A stretch of DNA of 60,044 nt from an uncultured Rhodanobacteraceae bacterium (GTDB taxonomy: Bacteria; Pseudomonadota; Gammaproteobacteria; Xanthomonadales; Rhodanobacteraceae), in contig CBFGSA010000001.1 of the NCBI GenBank assembly GCA_965651365.1, positions 1-60,044 of the forward strand, in the 5' to 3' direction. Under the pieces are notes generated by a model. It ran no database searches and had not been told where the DNA came from. It was given only the letters and a program-made list of their open reading frames with translations. Made by a program: the position numbers and the translations under genes. This document shows positions 3,964-59,804 of the stretch, one piece after another. The first letter of the stretch is position 1, and each line of letters begins with the position of its first letter.

Positions 3964-4026
3964 TCGGGACTCGGGACTCGGGACTCGGGACTCGGTGCGC
4001 GAGAGCGGGCAAATCCCGAATCCCGA
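3964..4026 (-). repeat. heptamer-array hairpin: (TCGGGAC)x4 at 3964-3991 facing (ATCCCGA)x2 at 4013-4026
   Basis: Read directly. The arms pair fully only in the minus-strand RNA (the seventh position is a U-G wobble there and a C-A mismatch on the plus strand). The element fills the gap between the Fe-S gene stop (4028) and the DUF3501 start (3952). Confidence 0.75.
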
Positions 4027-6204: not shown

Positions 6205-7143
6205 CTACATTTTTGTCTTCACGGCACGATTTGCGGTGGCGTGCGCGTCCAGCAGTTCGGGTGGCAATTGCCGGATCACGGCCGCCAGGCTGAGCAGAAA
6301 TTCGTGCTGCGCCGAGCTCTTGCGCCATACCATGGCCAGGCGGCGGTGCGGCGGCGGCGCGGCAAACTCGACCAGGTGCACATTGTCCACCCGCGCCACG
6401 GGCGGGTTGACCGCCAGGGTCGGCAGCAGGGTGATGCCGACATCGGCGGCCACCATCTGGCGCAGGGTTTCCAGGCTGGTGGCGCGAAAACCGCGGCGCT
6501 CGCCGGCGCCAGCCAGGTGGCAGACCTCCAGTGCCTGGTCACGCAGGCAATGGCCGTCTTCGAGCAGGAGCAGGCTTTCATTGGCCAGGTCAGCCAGTTT
6601 CAGCCGCTTGCGTCGGGCCAGCGGGTGTGAATCCGGTACCGCGAGAAGAAAGGGTTCCTCGAACAGCAGTTCCTGATGCAGGCTGTCCTCGTGGATCGGC
6701 AAGGCCAGAATGCCCGCATCCAGTCGGCCTGCCCGCAGCCGTTCCAGCACCACTTCGGTCTTCTCCTCCACCAGCAGCAGCTCCAGGCGTGGAAAGGCCT
6801 TGTGCACCAGCGGCACCACGTGCGGCAAAAGATAGGGTCCCAGTGTCGGGAAGATGCCCAGCCGTACCGTACCCGACTCCGGGTCGCGGGTGCGGCGCGC
6901 AATCGCCCGGATCTGGTCCGCCTCGTGCAGCACGTCACGGGCGCGCCTGGTGATTTCCTCGCCGACCTCGGTCAGGAGGATATTGCGCGGTGCACGCTCG
7001 ACCAGGGTCACGCCCAGCTCGTCCTCCAGCTTGCGGATCTGGGTCGACAGCGTCGGCTGGCTGACGAAACAGGCCTCGGCCGCGCGGCCAAAGTGCTTGT
7101 GTTCGGCCAGCGCCACCAGATAACGCAGATCTCTGAGGTTCAC
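6205..7143 (-). CDS. oxyR: LysR-family peroxide-sensing transcriptional regulator OxyR
   Basis: N-terminal HTH MNLRDLRYLVALAEHKHFGRAAEACFVSQPTLSTQIRKLE. Redox cysteine pair in LLLLEDGHCLRDQALEVC (equivalent to Cys199/Cys208). Confidence 0.9.
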   Translation of the reverse strand: MNLRDLRYLVALAEHKHFGRAAEACFVSQPTLSTQIRKLEDELGVTLVERAPRNILLTEVGEEITRRARDVLHEADQIRAIARRTRDPESGTVRLGIFPTLGPYLLPHVVPLVHKAFPRLELLLVEEKTEVVLERLRAGRLDAGILALPIHEDSLHQELLFEEPFLLAVPDSHPLARRKRLKLADLANESLLLLEDGHCLRDQALEVCHLAGAGERRGFRATSLETLRQMVAADVGITLLPTLAVNPPVARVDNVHLVEFAAPPPHRRLAMVWRKSSAQHEFLLSLAAVIRQLPPELLDAHATANRAVKTKM

Positions 7144-32264: not shown

Positions 32265-35114
32265 TCAGGCAGAGGCCAGCTTGTCGCGTTGCTCGCTCAA
32301 CGCATCGCGCTTTTGCTGCCATTCGGCAAGGCGCGCGCGTTCCTGTTCCACGACCTCGGCCGGCGCATTGTCGACGAAGCGCGCATTGCCGAGCTTGCCC
32401 TCGCACTTGGCGATTTCCTGGCCGATGCGGACAATTTCCTTGTCCAGACGGGCCTTTTCGGCGTCCAGGTCGATCAGGCCGGCCAGCGGGATCAGGATGC
32501 GCAGCTTGCCGACCACGGCGGTCGCAGCGGCCGGCTCCTCGCCATCGCCCAGCCATTGCGGGGCCTCGCTGTGGGCGAGAAAGGCGATCTGGTCGGCAAA
32601 GCGCTGCACGCGGGCACGATCCCCGCTGTCGCCGTCTGCCAGCAGCAGGGGAATGGTCTTGCCCGGCGCAATGTTCATTTCCGCACGGATGCGGCGGATG
32701 CCGCCCAGCACGGCCTTCAGCCATTCGATATCGGCGCTGGCGGCCTCGTCGCTGGCGATGGTGCCGGTATCGGGCCACGGCCGCTGCATGATGCTGTCGC
32801 TGTCCAGGCCCAGTCGGGGAGCCACCTGCTGCCAGATCTCCTCGGTGATGAACGGGATGACCGGGTGCAGCGCGCGCAGCACGGTTTCCAGCACCACCAG
32901 CAGCGTGTGCCGGGTCGACGCCGCCGCTTCCGTGTCGCCCCCTTGCAGCGCCGGCTTCGACAATTCCAGAAACCAGTCGCAATACTCGTTCCACACAAAC
33001 TCGTAAAGCGCCTGCGCCAGATGGTCAAAGCGATAGGTCTCGAAATGCTGCTCCACTTCGAGCAGCGTCTCTTTGAGCCGTGACAAGATCCAGCGCTCCG
33101 CCGCGGTCGCCGGCATTTCCCGAGTCCCGAGTCCCGAGTCCCGAGTCCCGTCCCCCACATTCATCAACACAAATCGCGACGCATTCCACAGCTTGTTGCA
33201 AAACGCCTTGTACCCCTCCGCCCGGCTGATATCGAAGTTGATGGTGCGGCTGTAGCTGGCCAGGGCAGCAAAGGTGAAACGCATGGCGTCGGTGCCGATG
33301 GCGCGGATGCCGTCGGGATAGTCCTTGCGGATGCGCTTTTCGACTTTCTCGCGCACCTGCGGGATCAGCAGCGAGCGGGTGGATTTTTCCACCAGCGGCT
33401 CCAACTCGATGCCGTCGATCAGGTCCAGTGGATCGAGCGTGTTGCCCTTGGATTTGGACATTTTCTTGCCTTCGGCGTCGCGCACGATGGCGTTGATGTA
33501 GACCTCGCGGAAGGGCACCTCACCAATGAAGTACCGGGTTGCCATGACCATGCGCGCGACCCAGAAGAAGATGATGTCGAAGCCGGTCACCAGCACCGCG
33601 CTGGGCAGGAAGATGCGATCCGCATTCCAGTTGGCGATGATCTCGCCGCGCTCATTGCCGATCGGCCCGCCGGCGGGCCAGCCCAAGGTCGAAAACGGCC
33701 ACAGCGCCGAGGAAAACCAGGTGTCCAGTACGTCGCTGTCCTGGGTCAGCGTGCCCACCGGTTCGGACTCGGCATGCTGGCGCGCATCGGCCTCGTTTTC
33801 GCCGACGAAGATGTTGCCGGCCTCGTCGTACCAGGCCGGAATCTGATGGCCCCACCAGAGCTGGCGGCTGATGCACCAGTCCTGGATGTTCTCCAGCCAC
33901 TGGGTGTAGGTCTTGGTCCAGTTTTCGGGCACGAACCGGATCTCGCCCGAGGTGACCGCTTCCAGTGCCGGTCGGGTGATGGCCGTGTGCCCGCCGGGGC
34001 GGCCGTCGTCCAGCGTGTCGCGGGTCAGATCCACGAACCACTGGTCGGTCAGCATCGGTTCGATCACGGCGTCCGAACGCTGGCTGACCGGTACCTGCAG
34101 CTTGTGTGCTTTGGTTTCCACCAGCAGATTCGCAGCTTCCAGGTCGGCCAGCACGGCCTTGCGCGCCGCGTAGCGATCCATGCCGCGATACTTCGCCGGT
34201 GCGTTGTCGTTGACCTTCGCATCCAGGGTGAAGATCTCGCGCGACTCCAGGCCGTGCCGCTGGCCGATGGCGTAGTCGTTGAAATCGTGCGCCGGCGTGA
34301 TCTTGACGCAGCCGGTGCCGAATTCGCGGTCGACGTAGTCGTCGGCAATGACCGGAATCTGCCGCCCGCACAATGGCAGCTCCAGCGTCTTGCCAACCAG
34401 GTGCGCATACCGCTCGTCTTCGGGATGCACCGCCACGGCCACGTCACCGAGCATGGTTTCCGGGCGCGTGGTGGCGATTACCACCGACTCGTCGCTGCCC
34501 GTGACCGGATAGCGGATCGACCACAGGTGGCCGTCGCGCTCGACGTTGTTGACCTCCAGGTCGGACACGGCCGTGCCCAGCACCGGATCCCAGTTGACCA
34601 GCCGGTTGCCGCGGTAGATCAGCCCGGAGCGGTACCATTCGACGAACACCTTGCGCACCGCGGCCGACAGGCCCTCGTCCATGGTGAAACGCTCGCGCGA
34701 CCAGTCGGCCGCCACGCCCAGTCGACGCATCTGGCGGGTGATGATCGAGCCGGACTGCTCCTTCCACTGCCACACCCGATCAACGAAGGCCTCGCGCCCC
34801 AGCGCGTGCTTGTCGCTGCCCTCGGCCGCGAGCTGATTCTCGACGATCTTCTGTGTGGCGATGCCGGCGTGGTCGCTGCCGACCTGCCACAGCGTGTTGT
34901 CGCCCTTCATCCGGTGGTAGCGGATCAGCATGTCCATCACGGTCTGCTGGAAGGCGTGGCCCATGTGCAGGGTGCCGGTGACATTCGGCGGCGGCAGCAG
35001 GATGCAGTAGGGCGAGCCCTCACCGCTGGGCCGGAAATACCCCGCAGCTTCCCACTGCGCATACCACTTCGACTCGATCTGGGCGGGCTCGAAACTCTTT
35101 TCCATGGGCGTCAC
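32265..35114 (-). CDS. valS: valine--tRNA ligase
   Basis: HIGH motif [13 protein letters not shown] and KMSKS motif. C-terminal coiled coil. 949 aa. Confidence 0.95.
33119..33150 (-). repeat. (CCCGAGT)x4 plus a partial heptamer array inside the valS coding sequence
   Basis: Read directly. It encodes [13 protein letters not shown] in a variable surface segment between the conserved FVLMN and ERWIL blocks. Confidence 0.85.
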
Positions 35115-47391: not shown

Positions 47392-48813
47392 TCACTTGCG
47401 CAAGGGCAGCAGGCCGAAGCCATCCGCGAAGATACTGTCGGACGGCATTGCATCAACTTCGACGGCCCCGAGGTCGCAGCGCGCAGCAAGACCCGCGCTG
47501 AGCGGATCCGGCCGCGGTGCGCCACGTTGGTCCTGGAATGGTGCCCGGCTGCAGGAGACGGCATCAATGGCTGCACTCCAATCCTGCGGCAGCATGGTCG
47601 GCGTGAATCCGCCGTTGTCCTGGAGCGGTCCCAGCAAGGGATCGGCGATGACGACCGCCTGACAGTTTGCACCGACCGGGCAACCTGCATGGACAATCGA
47701 TCGCTGGATTGTCATCGTCGACACACCCCCGACAAATTCGCCAGCATAAGCGTTGCCAGTATCCCAGATGATGGCATTTCTGATCGCCGCGCCACAGGTG
47801 CCGTTGTTGCACGACAGCTGCATGGCATTGCCCTGGGCGCTGGCCTGGTTGCCGGAAAAAGTCACGTTCGTCAGGATCGGACTCACGTGACCGCTGGTTG
47901 ACGCGCTTCCGCTGATCGCGCCGCCATACATGGACGTATTGCCCACAAAGCTCGCGTTGACAATAATCGGATCGCTGCGGCCATTGGCATAGCCGCCGTT
48001 ATAGATTGCGCCACCGGCGACATCTGCGCTGTTGTGCGCAAAGGTGGCGCGTTCGATCCGCGGGCTGCTGTTGCCGTTGCTGTATCCGGAATTGTAGATT
48101 GCGCCGCCGCGTTCGGTTGCCCGGTTGGAGACGAAGGACACATCCGCCAGACGGGCCGTGCTGGCGGCTCCGGCCTCGCCTCCAAAATAGATGCCCCCGC
48201 CGTTCGCGGCGCGGTTTCCCTGGAAGCGGAGCCGACGCAGTTGCGGGCTGCATTCGGATGTGGTTTTGAGCGATGCCCGACACCACAAGCCACCGCCGTC
48301 GTCCGTGGAGTCGGCCGCGGTGATGATGAATCCGTCCAGCACGGTCGACGGGCCAATCGGCACGTCATTGCCGTTCATGGTTACCACATGTTCGCTGTTC
48401 GTTCCGACGATGGCGCTCGTGTCCGGTGTGATGCCGTCACTGTCGATTGCATCGTTGTTGTCGATGTCGCCGGAAAGGATGGTCAGGTGGGCCGCCGGGT
48501 CGCGCTGTGCGCGTGCGGTCTCGTTGCCGGAAAACCCGCCAAACACCCGCGTGTCGGCGGGCACGACAAAACTCTCGCCGGGCGAGCTGCCCGGTTTGTA
48601 GCGACCCGACGCAACCCAGATTTCGGTGCAAGCGGGGGAATGCAAGGCACCTTGCAGGGGCATTGCGCTGGCCCAGGTGGTGCCGTCGTTGCCGGCCAAG
48701 CCGTTCACGGCAACGCGGCAGGTGCCGGCCTCTGCGGCACCTGCTCCCAGCAGTGTCAGGCCGACCAGGAAACAAGCGTTCGTGAGGATATGAGAAAAGG
48801 AGAGGCGATTCAT
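47392..48813 (-). CDS. secreted beta-helix protein with choice-of-anchor Q domain (paralog ii)
   Basis: Signal peptide. TCRVAVNG...GALHSPACTEIWV, RAQRDPAAHLTILSGDID, GGAIY rungs, DPLLGPLQDNGGFTPT...DQRGAPRP...CDLGAVE. AAGGAG Shine-Dalgarno sequence 6 nt before the ATG. Confidence 0.85.
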   Translation of the reverse strand: MNRLSFSHILTNACFLVGLTLLGAGAAEAGTCRVAVNGLAGNDGTTWASAMPLQGALHSPACTEIWVASGRYKPGSSPGESFVVPADTRVFGGFSGNETARAQRDPAAHLTILSGDIDNNDAIDSDGITPDTSAIVGTNSEHVVTMNGNDVPIGPSTVLDGFIITAADSTDDGGGLWCRASLKTTSECSPQLRRLRFQGNRAANGGGIYFGGEAGAASTARLADVSFVSNRATERGGAIYNSGYSNGNSSPRIERATFAHNSADVAGGAIYNGGYANGRSDPIIVNASFVGNTSMYGGAISGSASTSGHVSPILTNVTFSGNQASAQGNAMQLSCNNGTCGAAIRNAIIWDTGNAYAGEFVGGVSTMTIQRSIVHAGCPVGANCQAVVIADPLLGPLQDNGGFTPTMLPQDWSAAIDAVSCSRAPFQDQRGAPRPDPLSAGLAARCDLGAVEVDAMPSDSIFADGFGLLPLRK

Positions 48814-48910
48814 GACGACTCCTTGCAGTGAAGGTCTGTTTCTGTCAACGACACTCGCGCGCCAATCCCATCATGCCCGAAGCGGCCGGGAAATCAATTC
48901 GCAGTAGACT

Positions 48911-49492
48911 TTGAGGCCTGATTCCGGATTTGCGGGAGATGTGGTGGTAGCGATCAGCGAACAACTGCAGGCGTGGCGCGGTGGTGATGCGGAGGCTTTC
49001 CGTACCCTGCTGCCCCAGGTCTATGCCGAATTGCGCCGCATCGCGGGACGCCTGATGCACGAGCAGTCGCCGGCCCACACCCTGCAGCCGACCGCGCTGG
49101 CCAACGAGGCCTGGCTGAAGCTGGCGGGCAGCGGCGTGATCTGCCGCGACCACGCACATTTCATGGCGGTGGCGGCGCGCGCCATGCGCCAGATCCTGGT
49201 CGACCATGCCCGCGCTCTGTCACGCAAGAAGCGCGATGGCGGCGTGCGCGTGTCATTGACTCTGGCCAGCGGTGAACTGTTGGCCGCCGACGAAAATCTG
49301 CTGGCACTCGAGGACGGTCTGGTGGCGCTGGAAACCGAGGAACCGCGCGCGGCCCAGGTCACCGAACTGTACTACTACGGCGGCATGACCTATGCCGAAA
49401 TGGCCGAAGTGGTTGGTGTTTCTCCGGCCACGATCGATCGTGACCTGCGTTTTGCGCGCGCCTGGCTGGCCGACCGGATGGCGAATCCGTGA
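48911..49492 (+). CDS. ECF-type sigma factor (Sigma70_ECF / TIGR02999-like, the kinase-associated ECF group)
   Basis: LQAWRGGDAEAFRTLLPQVYAELRRIAGRLMHEQSPAHTLQPTALANEAWLKL is the family hallmark as I recall it. C-terminal sigma-4 HTH (MTYAEMAEVVGVSPATIDRDLRFAR). Start uncertain (TTG 48911 or GTG 48941). Confidence 0.8.
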   Translation: MRPDSGFAGDVVVAISEQLQAWRGGDAEAFRTLLPQVYAELRRIAGRLMHEQSPAHTLQPTALANEAWLKLAGSGVICRDHAHFMAVAARAMRQILVDHARALSRKKRDGGVRVSLTLASGELLAADENLLALEDGLVALETEEPRAAQVTELYYYGGMTYAEMAEVVGVSPATIDRDLRFARAWLADRMANP

Positions 49493-52014
49493 CCCGCGTC
49501 GGGTCCACGCTGAAGGAGCAGTTCGAGCGTGCGCTGGAAATGGGTGCGCCCGAACGCGAGGCATGGCTGGCGTCCCTGCGCGCCATGGATCCGCAACGTG
49601 CCGCACGCCTCGAACGGCTCATTGCTCAGGATGCCGGAGGTGTCGACCCGTTCGGCCGTTCCATTGAATCGCTCAAGCGCAGCCTCGACTTCAAGGCCAA
49701 CCATTGGGTCGGTCGCGAGATTGCCGGTTTCCGGCTGGTTCGGCTGCTGGGCGAAGGCGGCATGGGTGCGGTGTTTCTGGCCGAACGTCACACGGCCGAC
49801 CTGCGCCAGCTCGTGGCGCTGAAGCTGCTGCGGGGCCAATGGCTGGATGAGCGTGCGGTGGCCCGTTTTGGCGACGAACGGCGCATTCTGGCGCGGCTCC
49901 ACCACCCGAACATTGCCACCCTGATTGATGCCGGAGCCGACAGCGACGGACGGCCGTTCCTGGCGATGGAATTCATCGACGGCGTGCCGCTGGGTGAGTA
50001 TTGCGACCGGGCCGGCCTGGATGTGCCGCAGCGCCTGCGCTTGTGCCGCGGCCTGCTTTCGGCCCTGGCGTATGCCCACCGCATGCTGGTGGTGCATCAT
50101 GATCTCAAGCCGGGCAATGTTCTGGTCACTCCCGACGGGACGTCCAAGCTGCTCGATTTCGGCATTGCACGCCTGATTGACAACGATGCGCTGGAACGGG
50201 CGACTGCCACGCGCCCCTTCACGCCGGCGTATGCCAGCCCGGAGCAGATGGCGGGCGAGGCGGTGGGCACGGCCAGTGACGTGTACAGCATGGGCGTACT
50301 GTTGTACGAACTGGTTGTCGGCGTGTTGCCTCGGGGCGGGTCGGTGCGCCCCGGGACGGAGGCCGGGTTGACGCTGCCGGCAACCCGCTTCCGGCAGCTC
50401 GATCCGCAGAAGCGCCACGAATTGGCGCGCCAGCGCGGTGGTGATGCACGCGCGCTGCTGCGCTCCCTGCGCGGCAATCTCGGTCGGGTCATCGAGCGCG
50501 CGCTGAAGCCCGACCCCGAGCATCGATACGCAACGATGGAAGCGCTGGCCGGCGATCTGGAAGCGGTGCTGGCCGGGCGCCCCCCCTCCGGCATTCACAC
50601 CACGCGCGCGGCACGGGCGATGGCGTTCGGCCGCCGTCACGCCTGGCCGCTGGCGCTGGCGGCTTTGGCGCTCCTTGCCGGCGGCGGCGTGCTGGTGCAG
50701 GCCTGGATCGGTGCCAGGAGCTTGCAGCTTGAACGCGACCGGGCGCTGGTGGCGGCTGAAAAATCGCAGCAGATTGCCGGCTTTGTCGAAGCCATGCTCA
50801 GTGCCGTCGATCCGGACCGCGCCCAAGGCATGGACCGCAAGCTGATGTCCCTGGTGCTGGATTCGGCCGGCCAGCGGGCACAGCACGATCTGGCCGGACA
50901 GCCGGACGTGCGCATGGCCATCGAGCGCACCATTGCGCGCAGCTACAACAGCATCGGCGAGTACGCGCGGGCCGTGCACCATTTCGACCTCGCGCTGGGA
51001 GCCGTGAACAAGGCCGGCAGCTCCCCGGCGCAACGGGTGGACCTGCTGGCGAACAAGGCTCGAGCACTGGGCAACAAGGGTGATCGGGACGGGGCGGTGA
51101 CGGCCGCACGCCAGGCCGTGGTGCTGGCCGGGGCGCTGCCCGAGGATTCACGTGCGCGCCTGTTTGCGGAGAGCACTCTGGCCGGTTTCCAGTGCGACAG
51201 CGGTCACTTCAAATCCTGCCGCACCGCCTACGCCCAGGTACTCCCGGTCCAGCAGCGTGCGCTGGGAGCGACCGACCCGGACACCGAGGAAAGCCTGCGC
51301 GGCCTGGCCTATGCCCAGTCCAGACTGGGCCACTTCGGGCCGGCACGTGCGCTGTACGGCGAACTTCTTGCACAGGTGCGAAAACAGTATGGCGAAGACG
51401 ATTCGCGCACGCTGAACACCATCAACGGGCTGGCCATCACCTGGCTTGAGCAAAAGCAGTTTGCGCGGGCCGAAAAACTGCTGCAGCCGGCCGTGCAGCG
51501 CGCCGAAAAGATCTTTGGTCCCGACCATCCGCTGACTATCAACATGCTGTCCAACCTGGGCGGCGCGATTCGTCAGCAGCGCGGCCGCAATGCCGAGGCG
51601 CGGCCGTACTACGAAAAGGTGCTGGCGGTGACCCGCGAACGGTACGGTCCGGACAGCATGCGCACCGTTTTCGCCGAAAGCAACCTGGCTTCGCTGCTGC
51701 GCGATGCAGGTGAGCTGAAGGCTGCCGAGCAGCACATGCGCACGGCGATGGCGCACATGGACGCGGCCTTCGGCAGTGACAGCGTCTATCGTGGCATGCT
51801 GCTCGATACTCTCGGCAGCATCCTTGTGGCGGAGCACAAGCATGCCGAGGCCGCGCACATTCTGGATCGGGCTTGGGCGATATTCGACCGCGCGGGCTAC
51901 GCCGCGGATAATCCGGCCGTGCAGTCGGTAGTCGAGCATTGCGTCGAGCTGTACAGCGCATGGGGCCAGCCCGAAGAGGTCGCGCGCTGGAAATCCAGGC
52001 TCAAGTCCCCGTAG
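49489..52014 (+). CDS. Ser/Thr protein kinase with one TM segment and C-terminal TPR repeats
   Basis: GEGGMGAVFLA, HHDLKPGNVLV, DFGIARL, ASPEQ. TM segment AWPLALAALALLAGGGVLV. TPR_12-like repeats. The GTG start overlaps the sigma stop (GTGA). Confidence 0.88.
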   Translation: MTRVGSTLKEQFERALEMGAPEREAWLASLRAMDPQRAARLERLIAQDAGGVDPFGRSIESLKRSLDFKANHWVGREIAGFRLVRLLGEGGMGAVFLAERHTADLRQLVALKLLRGQWLDERAVARFGDERRILARLHHPNIATLIDAGADSDGRPFLAMEFIDGVPLGEYCDRAGLDVPQRLRLCRGLLSALAYAHRMLVVHHDLKPGNVLVTPDGTSKLLDFGIARLIDNDALERATATRPFTPAYASPEQMAGEAVGTASDVYSMGVLLYELVVGVLPRGGSVRPGTEAGLTLPATRFRQLDPQKRHELARQRGGDARALLRSLRGNLGRVIERALKPDPEHRYATMEALAGDLEAVLAGRPPSGIHTTRAARAMAFGRRHAWPLALAALALLAGGGVLVQAWIGARSLQLERDRALVAAEKSQQIAGFVEAMLSAVDPDRAQGMDRKLMSLVLDSAGQRAQHDLAGQPDVRMAIERTIARSYNSIGEYARAVHHFDLALGAVNKAGSSPAQRVDLLANKARALGNKGDRDGAVTAARQAVVLAGALPEDSRARLFAESTLAGFQCDSGHFKSCRTAYAQVLPVQQRALGATDPDTEESLRGLAYAQSRLGHFGPARALYGELLAQVRKQYGEDDSRTLNTINGLAITWLEQKQFARAEKLLQPAVQRAEKIFGPDHPLTINMLSNLGGAIRQQRGRNAEARPYYEKVLAVTRERYGPDSMRTVFAESNLASLLRDAGELKAAEQHMRTAMAHMDAAFGSDSVYRGMLLDTLGSILVAEHKHAEAAHILDRAWAIFDRAGYAADNPAVQSVVEHCVELYSAWGQPEEVARWKSRLKSP

Positions 52015-52179
52015 GGCGGGATCGGCGCAGCCGGACGCGACAGAGGCAGTAGCCACTGGAGCCCGTCCAAGCGCGAAACGCGGGAAACATCATCCGCGAT
52101 GAGGTGATCGGCCAGGCAATGTCGTGATACCGGGCAAGGCGCGGTTTTGCGCGCCATCCAGCCATTCCGGGAGATTGCC

Positions 52180-54212
52180 ATGCTGCACGACATCAGATTC
52201 CACCATTCCATCCTTCGGCCCCGCCGGTTGCTGTTGTTGCTTGGCATGTTGGCCATGAGCGGTGGCGGGATCGCCAGCGCCGACGCCGCCACCTGCCGCG
52301 TCAGCACGAGCGGAAGTGCCGCCAGCGACGGCAGCAGCTGGCTTGCCGCGAAAAGTCTGCAGGGCGCACTCGCAGATACCACCTGCACGGAGCTGTGGCT
52401 CAAGGCGGGGGTGTACCTGCCCGTGGTGCCGGCGGACCCGGGCCATGTCACTGACACCGAGCGTGGCATCAGTTTCGACATCCGGCCCGGGCTGGCCGTG
52501 TACGGCGGCTTTGTCGGCACCGAGGTCACGCGAGCCCAGCGCGATCCGGACCTGCATCGCACCATCCTGTCCGGTGATATCGATGGCAATGACAGTGTCG
52601 ATGCCGACGGAGTGACCGCCGATGCCGATGACATCGTCGGCGACAACAGCTATCAGGTGGTGCTGATGGATGGCACCACCGATACCCCGATCGGACCGGA
52701 CACGGTTCTCGATGGCCTGACCATCACCGCCGGCAGTGCGCAGACGTCTCAACAGTGGGGCGGCGGCGGTTTGTTCTGCGACGGAAGCGGTGCCGGCAGC
52801 AAGTGCAGTCCGAGTCTGGACAACCTGCGCTTTGTGGGCAACCAGGCCTATTACGGTGGTGCGATGTATTTCTACGGCGGCGAAGGTGAAGCCAGCCCGA
52901 CGCTGACGCGGGTCGTGGTCCGCGGCAATGCGGCCAGCGATGCCGGCGGAGGCCTGGTGGCCGACGTGGCGTCCGGCACGTATCCCGGGCAGAGTCGGGT
53001 GACCATCGTGGCCGCGCGCTTCATCGACAACCGGACAAGGTTTGACGCTGGCGGCCCCGCGGTGTACCAGCTCAACGGCGGCGGTGCGATCGCCACGCTG
53101 GCCAGTGGCACCGGGCTTCCCGATCTACACCTGAGCATCACCGACAGCAGCTTTGTCAACAACACCTCGCCTGCCCAGGGCGGTGCTTTGCTGTTTGCCT
53201 GCCCCAGGTTCGTGGGATCGCCGATGTCGACGCTGACACTGTCCGATGTCACCTTTGCCAGCAATCACGCGGAGTACAACGGCGGTGCCATCGCCGTTGC
53301 CGGCAAGTATTCGCCGCTGGCGGCAAGTATTCGCCGCTGGCGGCCACCCTGCGCAACGTCACCTTCGCCGACAACACGGCCGACAATGGTGGCGGCCTGA
53401 TGATCGACGGCATGGGTTCCAGTGATCCGCAGCTAACGCTGGACATGCACAACACCATTCTGTGGGGCAACATCGCCACCAATTCGGGCTCCCAGATTGC
53501 CAACCGGAGATTCACCGCGACAATCGAGCACAGCCTGATCCAGGGCGGTTGCCCGGGGGGCACAACGTGCAGCGTGATCGTCACCAGCGATCCCCTGCTG
53601 GGGTCGTTGGCCGACAACGGCGGCTTCACCCGCACCCTGCTGCCGGCGCCGGGCAGCGCCGCCATCGATGCCGGCAACGATGCGAGCTGCACCGCGCAGG
53701 ACCAGCGCGGCATTCAGCGGCCGCAAGGCTGGCACTGCGACATCGGCGCCGTCGAGGTCGGCGGGCAGCCGGTGCTGAGCGTCAGCGACGGCAATGACTA
53801 TGCCCGTTACGGCCAGACCCTGCAGTACGTGGTGATCCTGCACAACCCGGCATCGGCGACGTTTGCCGGCGTTACGGTGTCTGCCAATGTGCCGAGCCAG
53901 CTCGACGGCAATTCCATGCACTGGACCTGCCTGTCGCCGCCATCGCTTTGCACCGCCTCGGGCAACGGCCCGCTCAATGATGCGGCTGCGAACCTGCCGC
54001 CGTACGGCAGCATCAGCTGGCTGGTCAGCGCACCGGTACGCAATGATGCCGACGAAACGGGAGGCATCCAGTTCACGGCAAGCGCCGGTGCGGCTGGCGG
54101 TCTCAGTCAGCAGGTGACCGATACCGACACGCTGGGCCTGTTCCGCGATGGCTTTGACACCAGTGGCGCCAACGGTACCAACGCGACCGGTCTGCCGGCG
54201 GTTTCGCGGTGA
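52180..54212 (+). pseudogene. beta-helix / choice-of-anchor Q / DUF11-like surface protein (paralog iii) frameshifted by a 20-bp tandem duplication
   Basis: Track ORFs 52147-53400 and 53400-54212 are consecutive parts of one protein. Deleting one 20-bp copy restores ...AIAVAGKYSPLAATLRNVTFADNTADNGGGLMIDGMGSS... as a continuous 670-aa frame. Confidence 0.85.
53301..53340 (+). repeat. perfect 2 x 20-bp tandem duplication CGGCAAGTATTCGCCGCTGG, followed by CGGC microhomology
   Basis: Read directly: 53301-53320 equals 53321-53340, and 53341-53344 repeats the first 4 nt. Confidence 0.95.
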
Positions 54213-54258
54213 TATCGAGTTTGCACTGTGCGCGACCCCGGCCTGCGGTCAGGCGAGC

Positions 54259-54337
54259 GTAGGTCGGGACCAGCGAAGCTGGACCCGACGACTCGATCCG
54301 CAGTGTCGGGTTCGCGCTTTGCGCGATCCCGACCTAC
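54259..54337. repeat. two GTAGGTCGGGA...CCCGAC-type REP hairpins between convergent genes
   Basis: GTCGGGACCAGC-GAA-GCTGGACCCGAC and GTCGGGTTCGCGC-TT-TGCGCGATCCCGAC. The second unit contains the TAG stop of the BON gene (minus strand). Confidence 0.75.
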
Positions 54338-55056
54338 GGTTGCGATGTGGAGCTGGCCGGGGCGGGGGTGGTTTCGGTGCCGTAGGTCTGGGCACCGCCC
54401 GCTGCGCTGCTTGCAGAAGCGGGTGCGGGCGTGCTCGGCGGCTCGCCCTGGTCGGCGCCGTCGGTGTACTCGAACAGGTTGATGACTTTCTCCACGCCGC
54501 GGGTGTTGCGGGCGTTGTCGATCACGGCCTCGGCTTCGGCGTGTGTGACCAGGCCCATCAGGTAGACCTTGTCGTGCGCGACGGTGATCGACACGCGGCT
54601 GGGGTCGAAGCCGGGAATCGAGGTGATGTCGAGCAGGCCGGTCTTGATCCGGGCGCCCAGCGCGTTGTCGCCGCGCCGGGCCCAGAAGCCGGGCTCGGGC
54701 ATCACGTCCAATTCGTTTACCAGGCGCCGGGCGCCAATGAAACCCGAGGCGAGCTCGCCGGCACGTTCGCGCGCATCTTCGTTGACCACCTCGCCCACCA
54801 GCGCGATCACGCGATTGTAGACCACCACGCGGATATGATTGTGGCTGGCCAGTTGCTCGTCACTGTCGATGGCCTTCTTGACCGACAGCTGCAGGTTGCG
54901 ATCATTGATGATGGTGCTGGTGGCGCGGCGACTGTGGGCCACGTTGGCGCCGGTGGCCACGGCGGCCGCACCCCCCACCACGGCGGCAGTCACGCAGCCG
55001 GTCAGAACGAGGGGAATGCACAGCGCCAGCAGTACGGGGTGCAGGGCCGAAAGCAT
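54334..55056 (-). CDS. BON domain-containing lipoprotein (DolP/YraP-like) with low-complexity Pro/Ala/Ser tail
   Basis: Lipobox LVLTGC. Two BON-type repeats (IRVVVYNRVIALVGEV...; ISITVAHDKVYLMGLV...). Synteny after lpoA-yraN. Confidence 0.8.
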   Translation of the reverse strand: MLSALHPVLLALCIPLVLTGCVTAAVVGGAAAVATGANVAHSRRATSTIINDRNLQLSVKKAIDSDEQLASHNHIRVVVYNRVIALVGEVVNEDARERAGELASGFIGARRLVNELDVMPEPGFWARRGDNALGARIKTGLLDITSIPGFDPSRVSITVAHDKVYLMGLVTHAEAEAVIDNARNTRGVEKVINLFEYTDGADQGEPPSTPAPASASSAAGGAQTYGTETTPAPASSTSQP

Positions 55057-55060
55057 GGAA

Positions 55061-55426
55061 TCAGAACGCGTCGAAGGCATGGCGGATCCATTGGCTGGAT
55101 TGAGGGGACGATTCGGCGCCGAACGCTAGCACATCAAACCTGCACGGTTGCTGTGCGAGCGCCGGGTGCGACTGCAGGTAGATGCTGGCTGCCCGGATCA
55201 GGCGCTGGCGCTTGCTTCGGGTGACCGACAGCACCGCGCCACCGAAACCCTCGCCACGGCGGAAGCGCACTTCGACGAAGACCACGGTTTCGCCATCACG
55301 CATCACCAGGTCGATTTCGCCATAGCGGGTGTTGAAATTGCGCTCCAGCAGCGTGAGTCCGGCCTGCTGCAACTGCTCCAGAGCCCGGTTCTCGTAGTTG
55401 TCGCCGGTAGTGCGGCGCCAGCTCAT
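55061..55426 (-). CDS. YraN family protein (UPF0102 endonuclease-like)
   Basis: GDNYENRALEQLQQAGLTLLERNFNTRYGEIDLVMRDGETVVFVEVRFR. 4-nt overlap with lpoA. Confidence 0.85.
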   Translation of the reverse strand: MSWRRTTGDNYENRALEQLQQAGLTLLERNFNTRYGEIDLVMRDGETVVFVEVRFRRGEGFGGAVLSVTRSKRQRLIRAASIYLQSHPALAQQPCRFDVLAFGAESSPQSSQWIRHAFDAF

Positions 55427-57216
55427 GTCGGTGGTTGGCCACCATCCTCGGCTTGCAGGGCGCCGGTGACCGGTACCGCGATACCGTTGACGAAGCGGGC
55501 CCAGATCGGCGTGCGGTGGATGCGGCCGAAGCTGTCCATGGTGAGCTGGCCGGTGGCGCCGGACAGGTAGCTGCCCGGATGCTTGCGCAGCCATTTCAGG
55601 TACGGCATCAGTGCCCAGGCATCCATGCCGAAGGCAAACAACCGCGCGGCCGGACCTTGTGCATTGGGATCGGTATCGGTCAGCTTGCTGCGCCTGGGCA
55701 GTCCCGGTTGGGCGTTGAACAGCCAAGGCGCGTCACAGAAGGTCACGCCGTCCAGGTCTCGGTCCAGGCCCGGGCTGGATTCCGCACCGTAGATGTGCGA
55801 AGTGGCAAAAAGCGGCTGGGTGACCTGGGCGATGCGCAACTGCGGTACCAGCAGCCGGCCCTGTTGCGGGGTCATGGCAATGAAAACGCCGGTGGCCGGG
55901 CCGGCATTGGCCATCAGGGCATTGATGGCATCGGCGTAGTTGACTTCGGTGCGCGCCAGGGTGGCGCTGCCCAGGATCTTGCCGCCGTGGCTTTCGAACT
56001 GGGCCTGGAACGCGCGTGCTGCACGTTGCGCAAAACTGGCATCAGCCAGGAACAGCACCGCTTCGCTCAAGCCCTGTGTGGCCATGCGTGCGGCAATCTG
56101 CATTCCTTCGGCTTCGGGCGGCAGTGCAAATTCGGCGCTGCCGTCAGGCGGCAGACCCTGCGCTGGATGATTGAGGGCCAGCAGGGGCACCGGCAGTTGT
56201 CCGTGCTGGAACAGGGCGGCCACCGCATCCGGGGACAGGGGGCCGACCACAAGATCCGCTCCAGCGGCGACCGCCTGCTGGTAGGCCTGCACAGCGCCGG
56301 CCTGGGTGCCGGTGCTGTCCAGCATGTCAAGCTGCATCTGTGCCGATTGTTCGGGATGCGCTTTCCAGGCCGTGCTGAAACCGTCCTGAACGGCCAAGCC
56401 GGGGGCGGACAGGGGCCCGCTGATGGGCAGGATCAAGGCTACCTTGCCCGGCGCATCGTAGCCTTCGGCGCTGACGGCATTGCCGCCATGTGGCAGCAGG
56501 GTGCCGACGGGGTTTTGCAGTTGCGGCAGCGAGCTGGCAAGTGCGCTGCCCTTGTTTTTCAGTGCTTCGGCAATCCAGGCCCGCATCGGGTCGTGTTCGT
56601 CCAGCGCGTTGGCACGATCCTGCAGTTCGTTGTTGTCGATGCTTTCCAGCAAGCCCAGGATCTGCTTTTCATTCTGGCTTTTCGCGTAGCCACCCAGCGC
56701 TGCATCCATGGCCAGGCGCGAACGTGCCGCGGCCATGGCCTGACCGTCGGCGGCCTGGCCCCGCGCGCGCAGCTCCAGCGCACGCAGGCGCCACTTGTCT
56801 GGCAGCTCGTGGACGTTGGCCGTGAGTTGCAGGGCGCGGGGAGCGTTGCCCTGGGCCAGTGCTGCGCCGGCGCGCAGCAGGTCGAACTGGATTGCCTTGT
56901 CGGCGTCCAGGCGCTTGCGGCGAATGTGTGCGAGCAGGGGCTCGGCCGAGGCCCAGTCATCGAGCTGGCGGTAGCTTTCGGCGGCGTTTAGCAGGTATTC
57001 GTCGCGCCAGTGCGGATATTGTGCCGCCAGATTTTTCCATGCCTGAGCGGCCTGTTGCAGTTCGCCGCTCCACTGCAGCGAGCTGGCATGCTGCACTGCT
57101 GCCTGCTGCGCCGGGCTGGTCCGTGTGGTGGTGCCGGCGCAGCCGACCAGCATGGCCATGACCAGGGCGAGTACAAAGGCAGTTGCGGCAGATTTCTTGT
57201 TCACAGGCATATGCAT
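55423..57216 (-). CDS. lpoA: penicillin-binding protein activator LpoA
   Basis: Lipobox MLVGCAG, TPR-like N-domain, C-terminal type-1 periplasmic-binding fold (VALILPISGPLSAPGLAVQDGF). Divergent from rsmI, as in other gammaproteobacteria. Confidence 0.8.
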   Translation of the reverse strand: MHMPVNKKSAATAFVLALVMAMLVGCAGTTTRTSPAQQAAVQHASSLQWSGELQQAAQAWKNLAAQYPHWRDEYLLNAAESYRQLDDWASAEPLLAHIRRKRLDADKAIQFDLLRAGAALAQGNAPRALQLTANVHELPDKWRLRALELRARGQAADGQAMAAARSRLAMDAALGGYAKSQNEKQILGLLESIDNNELQDRANALDEHDPMRAWIAEALKNKGSALASSLPQLQNPVGTLLPHGGNAVSAEGYDAPGKVALILPISGPLSAPGLAVQDGFSTAWKAHPEQSAQMQLDMLDSTGTQAGAVQAYQQAVAAGADLVVGPLSPDAVAALFQHGQLPVPLLALNHPAQGLPPDGSAEFALPPEAEGMQIAARMATQGLSEAVLFLADASFAQRAARAFQAQFESHGGKILGSATLARTEVNYADAINALMANAGPATGVFIAMTPQQGRLLVPQLRIAQVTQPLFATSHIYGAESSPGLDRDLDGVTFCDAPWLFNAQPGLPRRSKLTDTDPNAQGPAARLFAFGMDAWALMPYLKWLRKHPGSYLSGATGQLTMDSFGRIHRTPIWARFVNGIAVPVTGALQAEDGGQPPT

Positions 57217-57317: not shown

Positions 57318-58181
57318 ATGGTGGCATCGGACATGGGCAAGGGGACCTTGTGGGTGGTGGCCACCCCGATCGGGAATCTGGACGACATCAGTCTGCGTGC
57401 GCTCAAGGTGTTGCGCGAGGTGGTGGTGATCGCCGCCGAGGACACCCGGCACAGCCGCACCCTGTTGCAACATCACGGCATCGATACGCCGATGCTCGCC
57501 GTGCATGATCACAATGAACGCACTGCGCTGGATTCGGTGCTTGAGCGTCTGGCCAGTGGTGAAGATGTGGCCCTGGTGTCGGACGCCGGCACACCGCTGA
57601 TCAGTGATCCGGGCTTCCGGCTGGTGCGGGCAGCGCGCGAGCAGGAATATCCGGTGGTGGCCGTGCCCGGCGCTTGCGCGGCCGTAGCCGCGCTGTCGGT
57701 GGCCGGCCTGCCCACCGACCGCTTCGTCTTCGAGGGCTTTCTGCCGGCCAAGGCCGCAGCACGGCGCGCGCGTATCACCGCGCTGGCGGCCGAAACGCGC
57801 ACCCTGGTGCTATACGAGTCGAGCCACCGGGTCGCACAGTGTCTGGACAACCTGGCCGCCATTTTGGGTCATGACCGGCCCGCGGTTCTGGTGCGCGAAT
57901 TGACCAAGATGCACGAGACCGTGCTGAGCATGCCATTGGCTGAACTGGCAGCCCGGGTGGCGGCCGATCCGAATCAGCAGCGCGGTGAAATCGTGCTGCT
58001 CATCGCCGGCCACGAGGCGGGCGACGGCGGCGAACGTCTGGCCGAAGGTCGCCGGGTACAGGGCATCCTGGCAGCGCATCTTCCACCCGCCAAGGCGGCC
58101 AAGCTTGCCGCTGCAATCAGCGGCGCGCCGCGCAAGGCCTTGTACTCACCAGGGGACAGGGGACTGAAGACAGAGGACTGA
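57318..58181 (+). CDS. rsmI: 16S rRNA (cytidine1402-2'-O)-methyltransferase
   Basis: GTLWVVATPIGNLDDISLRALKVLREVVVIAAEDTRHS. Start is ATG 57318 or 57333. The last ~10 codons are encoded by the purine-rich heptamer array. Confidence 0.9.
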   Translation: MVASDMGKGTLWVVATPIGNLDDISLRALKVLREVVVIAAEDTRHSRTLLQHHGIDTPMLAVHDHNERTALDSVLERLASGEDVALVSDAGTPLISDPGFRLVRAAREQEYPVVAVPGACAAVAALSVAGLPTDRFVFEGFLPAKAAARRARITALAAETRTLVLYESSHRVAQCLDNLAAILGHDRPAVLVRELTKMHETVLSMPLAELAARVAADPNQQRGEIVLLIAGHEAGDGGERLAEGRRVQGILAAHLPPAKAAKLAAAISGAPRKALYSPGDRGLKTED

Positions 58182-58368
58182 GCTGAGGACAGAGGACAGA
58201 AGACAGTGAACTGTAAAGGCAAGGAGCCACCTGCTTTGCCCCGTTTACCGGCATGAGCCGTTCGTGCGGAACAATGCGGTAGGCGGAAGAGTGCCGAACT
58301 GCGCTGCTTTTGCAGACATCGGTCCTCAGTTTCCTGTTTTCTGCCTCTGTCTTCTGTCCCCTGTCTCC
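58152..58368 (+). repeat. composite structured element upstream of rnpB: purine-rich (GGACWGA)n array 58152-58206, module GTGAACTGTAAAGGCA...CTTTTGCAGA 58206-58316, complementary pyrimidine-rich array 58324-58370
   Basis: 58152-58176 is 23/25 complementary to 58344-58368. The module ends form an 11-bp stem only with G-U pairs on the plus strand. Confidence 0.75.
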
Positions 58369-58379
58369 TGTATTCTGGT

Positions 58380-58748
58380 GATGAGTCGGCCGGACAGTCG
58401 CGGCACGCTTGCGTGTCGAGGAAAGTCCGGGCTTCAAAGGGCAGGGTGCCAGGTAACGCCTGGGCGGCGTGAGCCGACGGAAAGTGCAACAGAGAGCAGA
58501 CCGCCGAACGGCGTCGCAAGACGTGCGTGGCAAGGGTGAAAGGGTGCGGCAAGAGCGCACCGCGTGCGGGGACAACGCCGCACGGCACGGCAAACCCCAC
58601 CTGAAGCAAGACCGAATAGGGGAACATTGGCGCGGCCCGCGTCGTTCCCGGGTAGGTCGCTTGAGGCCTGGTGGCGACATCAGGTCCAGAGGAATGACTG
58701 TCACGCCTTCGGGCGCACAGAACCCGGCTTACAGGCCGACTCATTATC
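58380..58748 (+). ncRNA. rnpB: RNase P RNA, bacterial type A
   Basis: Colinear with E. coli M1 RNA: GAGGAAAGTCCGGGCT, GGGCAGGGTGCCAGGTAACGCCTGGG, AGTGCAACAGAGAGCA, GGTGAAAGGGTGCGG.AAGAGCGCACCGC, ACAGAACCCGGCTTA. P1 helix is GAGTCGGCC / GGCCGACTC. Ends are accurate to about +/-5 nt. Confidence 0.95.
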
Positions 58749-58750
58749 AC

Positions 58751-58869
58751 AAGACAGAAGACGGAGGACAGAGGGCCGAGCGGAGGAACAGAGGACAGGG
58801 GACGGTGAACTGTAAAGGCAGAAGAGCTCGGATATTGAGCGTGCCGGTTGCACGGCTTGTTTTTGCAGA
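58751..58869 (+). repeat. second copy of the purine-rich heptamer array (58751-58804) plus GTGAACTGTAAAGGCA...TTTTGCAGA module (58805-58869), downstream of rnpB
   Basis: The 16-nt GTGAACTGTAAAGGCA is identical to 58206-58221. The same closing stem logic applies. Confidence 0.75.
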
Positions 58870-58898: not shown

Positions 58899-59804
58899 TC
58901 AGTCTTGTGTCAGACACACCGTCTTGCGCTTGCCTTCGGGCAGGGGAATGAATTCGTCATCGCCGGCAACCATGGGCCAGCGCTGTTCACGCCAGGCCTG
59001 GCGTGCCTGCTCCAGCTTCGCTTCACTGCTGGCGACAAAGTTCCACCACAGATAGCGCGGCGCATCCAGCGGTACGCCGCCCAGCAGCACCACGTGGGCG
59101 TCGCTTGTGGCGCGGATGTGGCGTTCCTTTCCAGGGGCGAACAGGGCCAGTTCGCGCTGACGCAGGGCTTCGCCGCCGACCTCGGCTTCGCCTTCAATCA
59201 GATAGGCCGCGCGCTGCGGGTATTCGTCGGGCAGGGGCAATTCTGCACCGGCGGGCAGGTGCGCATCGACATAGAAAAGCTCGCTCTGTACACTGACCGG
59301 TGAGCGTTTGCCCCAGGCGCTGCCAGCCACGATGCGCACCGTGGCATTGGCGATTTCCAGTTGCGGCAATGCACTGGCGTCGGTGTGTTCGAACATCGGC
59401 TCGTCCTGCTCGTGCTCAAGCGGCAGGGCGACCCACAATTGCAGGCCGTGCATGGCCTGCGGCTTGCCCCGGTCTTCTGCGGCGGTGCGCTCGGAATGCA
59501 CGATGCCCTTGCCCGCGCGCATCCAGTTGACGTCACCTGGTTCGATGATCTGGACATTGCCGAGTCCGTCGCGGTGCTCGATCCGGCCCTGCCACAGGTA
59601 GCTCACCGTGGCCAGGCCGATATGCGGGTGCGGGCGCACGTCCATGGCCTTGTCCGCGGCCATCGTCAACGGGCCGAAGTGGTCCATGAACACGAACGGG
59701 CCCACTGCCCGGTGCGATTTTGGGGGCAGCACGCGGTGTACGTGGAAGCCGTCGCCGAGGTTATGCGAAAAACCGGCCAGGTGTTCGCTGATCAGATTGC
59801 TCAT
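58899..59804 (-). CDS. pirin family protein
   Basis: GPFVFMDHFGP...RPHPHIGLATVSYLWQG.IEHRDGLGN...G.VNWM.AG.GIVHSE is the cupin metal-site pattern of pirins. Confidence 0.9.
   Translation of the reverse strand: MSNLISEHLAGFSHNLGDGFHVHRVLPPKSHRAVGPFVFMDHFGPLTMAADKAMDVRPHPHIGLATVSYLWQGRIEHRDGLGNVQIIEPGDVNWMRAGKGIVHSERTAAEDRGKPQAMHGLQLWVALPLEHEQDEPMFEHTDASALPQLEIANATVRIVAGSAWGKRSPVSVQSELFYVDAHLPAGAELPLPDEYPQRAAYLIEGEAEVGGEALRQRELALFAPGKERHIRATSDAHVVLLGGVPLDAPRYLWWNFVASSEAKLEQARQAWREQRWPMVAGDDEFIPLPEGKRKTVCLTQD

Follow-up and report, generated by a model that had tools for sequence, protein, structure and literature searches.

The question raised by this locus is whether a perfect 20-bp tandem duplication, found inside a gene for a probable surface protein, is a fresh mutation, one state of a reversible switch, or a product of sequence assembly. 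The duplication lies at positions 53301–53340 of a 60,044-nucleotide (nt) stretch of DNA from an uncultured, soil-type Rhodanobacteraceae bacterium (contig CBFGSA010000001.1, hereafter referred to in its full length as the window), and it splits a gene encoding a beta-helix protein of 670 amino acids (aa) into two open reading frames (ORFs). An earlier note on the same DNA had left these three readings open, and it is the fresh inactivation that is best supported by the present analysis: the duplication is probably a real and very recent slippage frameshift, constituting a plain recent loss-of-function allele among near-identical Rhodanobacteraceae strains.

The first copy of the 20-nt unit, CGGCAAGTATTCGCCGCTGG, occupies positions 53301–53320 of the forward strand and the second positions 53321–53340, the two being identical, arranged head to tail and separated by no spacer; the second copy is extra relative to all relatives, and deleting either one gives the same result. 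The first four nucleotides of the unit, CGGC, occur again directly after the second copy (53341–53344, forward strand). Tandem Repeats Finder reports the region 53291–53344 with a period of 20, 2.7 copies and a score of 94, the top score in the window, and this is the sole perfect tandem duplication with a unit of at least 15 nt among its 60,044 bases, the longest unit obtained in 30 Markov shuffles of the window being at most 10 nt.

Both resulting ORFs are located on the forward strand. The 5′ fragment, ORF A (52180–53400), starts at an ATG at 52180 or a TTG at 52147, stops at a TGA at 53398–53400 and encodes 406 aa, which begin with a signal peptide and comprise 382 native beta-helix residues followed by 24 out-of-frame residues; the 406-aa protein on record P0241 is this very fragment from the window itself. 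The 3′ fragment, ORF B (53400–54212), is read in the +2 frame relative to ORF A and encodes 270 aa equivalent to residues 401–670 of the intact protein, comprising the last beta-helix rungs, the choice-of-anchor Q domain, a C-terminal beta-sandwich and an LFRDGFD tail. Its ATG at 53400 overlaps the TGA of ORF A by one base (TGATG, 53398–53402), and its product, having no signal peptide, begins in the middle of the beta-helix. When either copy of the unit is deleted in silico, a single 670-aa ORF results, which contains the sequence ...GGAIAVAGKYSPLAATLRNVTFADNTADNGGGLMIDG... at the repaired site. Comparison with the earlier note therefore leaves its structural description intact: the two copies are identical base for base, the microhomology is present at the junction, the frameshift terminates at 53400, the remainder of the protein continues in another frame from 53400 to 54212, and removal of one copy yields a seamless beta-helix rung exactly as had been claimed. 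For purposes of annotation, the two ORFs are better called as one disrupted gene.

That the two fragments derive from one gene is confirmed by its relatives, in which the gene is continuous. Two checks proposed in the earlier note, namely a comparison of the orthologous locus in related genomes and a search with the restored 670-aa protein, were carried out and both support it. The search returned full-length matches, including the continuous orthologues P0001 (670 aa, 91% identity), P0002 (667 aa, 70%) and P0003 (670 aa, 66%, from a Rhodanobacteraceae metagenome-assembled genome, MAG). All six orthologous sequences (L001, L002, L003, L009, L010 and P0244) have one copy of the unit within a continuous ORF of 667–670 aa, the five besides L010 being 64–91% identical to the restored protein and each of them one-copy, and DNA alignment places a clean 20-nt gap exactly at the duplication in L001, L002, L003 and L010. 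The 90%-identity cluster of P0001 has five members, among them P0241, P0242 (670 aa), and P0243 and P0244 (669 aa each).

The closest of these relatives is also the most informative. P0242, which is encoded on L010, an independent public contig of 7671 bp from the Logan assembly of SRR17295756, is 100% identical to the protein restored in silico. Compared with positions 49292–56982 of the window, L010 differs by 6 single-nucleotide polymorphisms (SNPs) and the 20-nt indel, the two being 99.92% identical, and the only SNP that falls inside the gene is synonymous. The occurrence of the restored protein at this level of identity indicates that the ancestral one-copy allele is a natural one, carried by a strain that is 99.92% identical to the window along the compared stretch. 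At a greater distance, the sister-species locus L009, on a 162-kb ENA contig, has an identical gene order and an intact 669-aa gene. A scan of genome contigs gave one true orthologue (the L002 MAG) and two distant matches from Anaerolineae, the genome of the window itself not being among the results. Neither allele was matched when JGI metagenomes were scanned for the exact patterns, and a literature search for SRR17295756 gave no paper. ValS assigns the organism to the Rhodanobacteraceae; the nearest relatives of this protein are 87% identical, the cluster of the best one including MAGs of Rhodanobacteraceae bacterium, with identities of 83–84% to Oleiagrimonas and ~81% to Dyella, Rhodanobacter and Frateuria.

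As to how the second copy arose, the one-copy allele contains two 14-mers, TCGCCGTTGCCGGC (arm R1, 53291–53304, forward strand) and TCGCCGCTGGCGGC (arm R2), which lie exactly 20 nt apart, are identical at 12 of 14 positions and both end in CGGC. In the one-copy allele R2 is found 20 nt 3′ of R1, and in the window it is now present twice, at 53311–53324 and 53331–53344 of the forward strand. This is the sole site in the 60 kb of the window with at least 12/14 identity at a lag of 20 (a frequency of 1.7e-5), and a 4/4 match at that lag, such as the one between the two CGGC, is found at 0.57% of window positions. R1 can thus be proposed as a predisposing slip site: the ancestral one-copy sequence would have held the two quasi-repeats, the nascent strand, once past the second CGGC, would have re-paired with the first one, and the intervening 20 nt would have been copied again. 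The duplicated interval between both CGGC is the outcome predicted by slipped-strand mispairing during replication, which we take to be the likely origin of the repeat. The identity of the two arms is 12/14 in this species, 10–11/14 in the sister species and 5–7/14 in distant orthologues, and since the quasi-repeat decays in this way among relatives, it is not a conserved, selected slip site.

Tandem duplications arising by slippage at short direct repeats or quasi-repeats are a classic class of spontaneous frameshift, the CTGG hotspot of lacI being one example. Slippage at direct, gapped and quasi-repeats has been documented as a common source of gene-inactivating indels (PMC4948707). The case described here resembles such duplications, including the repeat-associated indels of Sodalis symbionts (PMC4948707), in its perfect head-to-tail copies and flanking microhomology, and further in the pre-existing quasi-repeat at the lag of the duplication, in a length not divisible by three and in the single-copy state of its relatives. 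No essential difference separates it from this class, the window case being a single two-copy event in a MAG. We therefore regard the duplication as one more example of an already familiar type of event: an ordinary recent loss-of-function mutation and not a new mechanism.

The age of the event can be judged from the substitutions around it. Against L001, the ratio of non-synonymous to synonymous substitution rates (dN/dS) is 0.28 for the part of the gene before the junction and 0.32 for the part after it; downstream of the frameshift, the window lineage has accumulated 22 synonymous and 19 non-synonymous changes, and the L001 lineage 15 and 25, respectively. Constraint on the gene is not visibly relaxed on either side of the junction, and this, together with the identical protein in L010, is why the event must be considered very recent. 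The same two ratios, and the single synonymous difference from L010, uphold the claim of the earlier note that the flanking sequence carries no other decay. A separate feature of the same comparison is a mosaic divergence within the gene, the synonymous rate (dS) relative to L001, its 91% orthologue, being 0.095 upstream of the junction and 0.308 downstream, which suggests either recombination or a faster-evolving C-terminal beta-sandwich domain.

With regard to its consequences, the insertion shifts the frame by +2, so that the product is cut after residue 382, within a beta-helix rung, and continued by 24 aberrant residues. It thereby lacks the choice-of-anchor Q domain and the C-terminal beta-sandwich, together with the last rungs that precede them and the conserved LFRDGFD tail. 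Because the frame is shifted and these C-terminal parts of the beta-helix protein are lost, the two-copy allele is most likely a loss-of-function allele. By itself such an allele matters little; its use lies in presenting a natural slippage frameshift before further decay, with the ancestral allele kept in a 99.92%-identical strain, and it can serve as a test case for strain-level variation in MAGs.

Some observations nevertheless weigh against reading the locus as a real loss-of-function mutation. The 406-aa truncated product retains the signal peptide and most of the helix. The length of the unit, exactly 20 nt, equals k-1 for k=21, and the two-copy allele is present on one contig only. A further contig, L012 (ERZ23579493, from another sample, assembled with SPAdes at a coverage of 11.8), has the window haplotype at three diagnostic SNPs and ends at window position 53330, after the first 10 nt of the second unit, the estimated chance of a contig end falling within the 44-nt repeat region being ~1%. 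The reason for this break may be that assemblers have difficulty with the region or that the sample contains both alleles, and the latter case would leave room for switching.

The alternative that survives best, though we hold it to be unlikely, is that slippage adds and removes one copy of the 20-nt unit, providing a heritable and readily revertible OFF state for one of two beta-helix surface proteins linked to an ECF43 (extracytoplasmic function, ECF) sigma factor, and that the population uses this toggle, e.g., under phage, predator or immune-like pressure. One- and two-copy alleles do occur in strains that are 99.92% identical and come from different assemblies, and a mixture of alleles could tangle an assembly graph, as the break of L012, which shares the SNP haplotype of the window, inside the unit might suggest; the product, moreover, is probably a surface protein, the loss of which could be buffered by an intact paralogue. 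Two perfect 20-nt copies and the additional 4 nt provide 24 nt of homology for precise deletion. Such repeats are a good substrate for deletion by RecA-independent slippage, which should make the step from OFF to ON relatively frequent, and since slippage can remove one of two perfect copies, the OFF allele is expected to return to ON more often than a point mutation would. The opposite step, however, is of another kind: the ON allele has no repeat tract, only the 12/14 quasi-repeat, and its duplication depends on a 4-nt microhomology, so ON to OFF would proceed at an ordinary mutation rate and the switch would be strongly asymmetric. The quasi-repeat, moreover, is not conserved (10–11/14 in the sister species, 5–7/14 in distant orthologues), the duplication is found in only one of eight sampled sequences, and if both alleles were mixed in the sample of L012, the assembly graph should branch at 53321, whereas L012 ends at 53330. 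The break of L012 is thus compatible with the presence of both alleles, but such a mixture does not explain the discrepancy of 9 nt.

Comparison with known systems leads to the same view. Contingency loci of Neisseria, Haemophilus and Campylobacter share with this locus a probable surface-protein target, slippage, and a reading frame set by copy number. They carry many copies of 1–7-nt units in both ON and OFF states, and their tracts are conserved. At the present locus, by contrast, the unit is 20 nt long and occurs just once in the ON allele, and the hallmark of such loci, a conserved tract in both states, is not seen, the identity of the arms falling to 5–7/14 in distant orthologues. A closer precedent for switching is phcA of Ralstonia solanacearum, in which, as far as the account given in a preprint goes, tandem duplications are linked to phenotype reversion in planta (bioRxiv 10.1101/2023.04.27.538605, citing Poussier et al. 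2003); on that account, the two cases are alike in that a short intragenic tandem duplication inactivates the gene and that precise excision is possible in principle, and they differ in that phcA is a regulator, whereas the target in the window is a structural, probably secreted protein. That reversibility is not automatic is evident from an internal duplication in agrA of S. aureus, for which serial-passage screening gave no revertants (PMC6686034). We thus find no positive evidence for an evolved ON/OFF switch and regard revertibility as a by-product of the way in which the duplication originated. If the switch were nonetheless real, it would represent phase variation via a long, low-copy tandem duplication, rather than a simple-sequence tract, in natural populations.

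The possibility of an assembly artefact is distinctly unlikely. It supposes that two contigs overlapping by k-1 = 20 nt (k=21) were joined end to end without the overlap being collapsed, either directly or in a gap-closing or merging step, and it gains some plausibility from the coincidence in length noted above, k=21 being the smallest k of common metagenome assemblers (the defaults of MEGAHIT and SPAdes). The window is, furthermore, a whole metagenome-assembled contig (60044 bp) and the only one with the two-copy allele, and the independently assembled SPAdes contig of the same haplotype, L012, ends in the repeat unit, which makes it conceivable that this spot is a recurrent contig boundary. 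A random join, however, would be unlikely to fall on the sole lag-20 quasi-repeat in 60 kb (1.7e-5) and also on a 4-nt microhomology (0.57%), and it is this coincidence of the site with the only such quasi-repeat in the window that makes the artefact appear unlikely. In addition, k-mers that span the junction are largely missing from the one-copy allele (16/20 for k=21, 26/30 for k=31 and 50/54 for k=55), so a de Bruijn assembler would need reads that contain them. The window is also free of N, with no other split gene among those checked, full-length products being encoded by the genes for ValS, ProS and SdaA and by the neighbouring genes. A last reading, that two independently translated genes have always been present or that a programmed ribosomal frameshift joins them, is extremely improbable and was rejected on comparative evidence. 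In its favour, the stop/start overlap at 53398–53402 is an arrangement able to couple translation. Against it, the ORF is continuous in every relative and lacks the insertion, the 270-aa piece has no signal peptide and starts in mid-helix, and the 20 inserted nt could not be removed by frameshifting.

The product of the gene can be characterized from its restored form. By inspection, it has an N-terminal signal peptide (…GGGIASADA|ATCRV), and profile searches find the choice-of-anchor Q domain NF041518 at residues 464–520 (E 3.9e-23, 81.5 bits vs a cut-off of 25), Chlam_PMP PF02415 (25.8 bits vs a cut-off of 20.6) and the POMP repeat TIGR01376 (19.3 bits vs a cut-off of 15). The domains named in the earlier note, choice-of-anchor Q and a DUF11-like domain, thus stand in part: the former is clearly recognized, whereas DUF11 (PF01345) remains below its gathering score (14.7 bits vs 24.6, E 0.039) and is only a weak match by sequence, the similarity being one of fold only, in that a C-terminal beta-sandwich is present in an AlphaFold model. 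This model, built on the 91%-identical orthologue P0001 with a 45-sequence alignment (mean predicted local distance difference test score, pLDDT, 83.9), consists of a right-handed beta-helix from residue 37 to ~470, with pLDDT mostly >90, then a lower-confidence choice-of-anchor Q segment, a beta-sandwich at 525–645 and a disordered tail. The duplication junction corresponds to residues 381–383, within the beta-helix strand 380–390 of the P0001 model.

Among solved structures, Rhombotarget A (9cdv_A; E 3e-4, TM-score 0.31/0.44, sequence identity 14%) has the closest fold and is the best PDB match given by Foldseek, the right-handed beta-helix being common to it and the model, and the C-terminal domain of the model resembles CARDB- or adhesin-type immunoglobulin-like beta-sandwiches. 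No model of a C-terminal sorting signal matched the restored protein at E up to 0.1 (no GlyGly-CTERM, PEP-CTERM or LPXTG). The protein is probably located at the surface or secreted. In comparison with the choice-of-anchor Q family, it carries no recognized sorting signal, and this family has a C-terminal (I/L)F.DGF motif instead. Across the family, the restored protein (residues 645–653), a paralogue encoded at 47392–48813 on the reverse strand and ~900-aa homologues (alignment A3) end with, or shortly after, a conserved (I/L)F(A/R)DGF, which could be a tag for secretion or anchoring that has not been described before. In many homologues, the entire beta-helix plus choice-of-anchor Q module is duplicated in tandem. 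A link to rhomboid or rhombosortase, which had been prompted by the rhomboid gene adjoining the kinase in locus L008 and by Rhombotarget A as the top fold match, was rejected for the window, in which the gene beside the paralogue encodes a member of the uracil-DNA glycosylase family and GlyGly-CTERM is absent.

The disrupted gene lies 165 bp downstream of a sigma factor/kinase operon, which agrees with the description in the earlier note of a gene directly downstream of an ECF sigma/kinase pair. The sigma gene (48911–49492, forward strand) matches TIGR02999 (186 bits vs a cut-off of 126) and is of the kinase-associated, ECF43-like type. The kinase gene (49489–52014, forward strand), the start of which overlaps the sigma stop codon, encodes a PknS-like Hanks-type Ser/Thr kinase with an N-terminal extension of ~80 aa preceding the kinase domain, one transmembrane segment and C-terminal TPR repeats. 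ECF43 sigma factors have a conserved Thr (QTTA consensus) in the sigma 2.2 region in place of the acidic DxxD motif, and EcfK/PknS of Xanthomonas citri and EcfP/PknT of Vibrio parahaemolyticus are known pairs of an ECF43 sigma factor and a Hanks kinase (PMC13147305). In the window, the sigma 2.2 region reads ...HTLQPTALANEAW..., in which, by eye, LQPTAL takes the place of the ECF43 QTTA phospho-threonine motif. The likeness to the known pairs (PMC13147305) thus includes the Q-P-T-A that replaces the acidic DxxD, and also the gene arrangement, with the sigma gene directly upstream of, and overlapping, the gene for a transmembrane Ser/Thr kinase that has an N-terminal extension and periplasmic TPR repeats. 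The setting differs, as PknS/EcfK control a type VI secretion system (PMC13147305) and the pair in the window adjoins genes for probable beta-helix surface proteins.

Divergently from the sigma gene runs that of the intact paralogue (47392–48813, reverse strand), a 473-aa protein with a beta-helix, choice-of-anchor Q and Pmp repeats that ends in IFADGF and is 41% identical to P0001; the same 473-aa gene is present in the sister locus L009. A promoter-like motif, ATGAGGTGATCGGCCAGGCAATGTCGT, is located at 52099–52125 on the forward strand, 54 nt upstream of the ATG of the disrupted gene, and a second copy, ATGATGGGATTGGCGCGCGAGTGTCGT, at 48848–48874 on the reverse strand, upstream of the paralogue. 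The common pattern, ATGAnGnnATnnGC(N7)TGTCGT, has only these two matches in the window vs 0.01 expected by chance, a statistic that is partly circular, the pattern having been refined after its sequences were seen. The orthologues in L001, L003, L009 and L010 are likewise preceded by the conserved motif. It is a candidate ECF-type promoter, and both paralogues may belong to the regulon of the kinase-activated sigma factor, in which case the loss of one could be buffered by the other.

A recurrent module, made up of the sigma factor, the kinase and beta-helix choice-of-anchor Q proteins, can be recognized at 47392–54212 of the window, at 5210–12010 of L009 and at 6657–12754 of L008. In Xanthomonadaceae bacterium JHOS43, a distant homologue of the beta-helix protein divergently adjoins a Sigma70_ECF and Pkinase-TPR pair, and other homologues are not found in this arrangement. 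The module may represent a new regulon and promoter for kinase-activated ECF43 sigma factors in Xanthomonadales-like bacteria and, with its common motif, it is a more interesting by-product of this analysis than the duplication itself.

Downstream of the disrupted gene are the core genes dolP/yraP, yraN, lpoA, rsmI and the RNase P RNA. The intergenic sequence immediately following the disrupted gene on its 3′ side contains, at 54255–54345, a palindrome resembling repetitive extragenic palindromic (REP) elements, GTAGGTCGGGA…TCCCGACCTAC, the core of which is related to arrays of the heptamer TCGGGAC. This heptamer (reverse complement TCCCGAG) is repeated ~4.6 times at 33118–33150 and at 3964–3995. 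The array at 33118–33150 lies inside valS (32265–35105, reverse strand), in which it encodes a variable surface-loop insertion of 11 residues; the insertion is common to the closest relatives, and a different sequence is found at this place in Dyella, Rhodanobacter and Oleiagrimonas. The RNase P RNA gene, rnpB (58382–58747), is also flanked by heptamer arrays, at 58150–58225, 58325–58377 and 58750–58825, with (RGGACAG)n and GTGAACTGTAAAGGCA on both of its sides and the reverse complement (CTGTCYY)n immediately 5′ of it. The 5′ and 3′ flanks of rnpB can pair over ~60 bp (-71 kcal/mol, z = -6 vs shuffles), and in L009 rnpB has both upstream arrays and no downstream array. Finally, in comparison with L012, a strain otherwise near-identical to that of the window, there is a 3-nt indel at 58025–58027, and the pirin gene (58899–59804, reverse strand) contains 24 SNPs within 133 nt (59103–59235), a cluster that looks like a small recombination patch.

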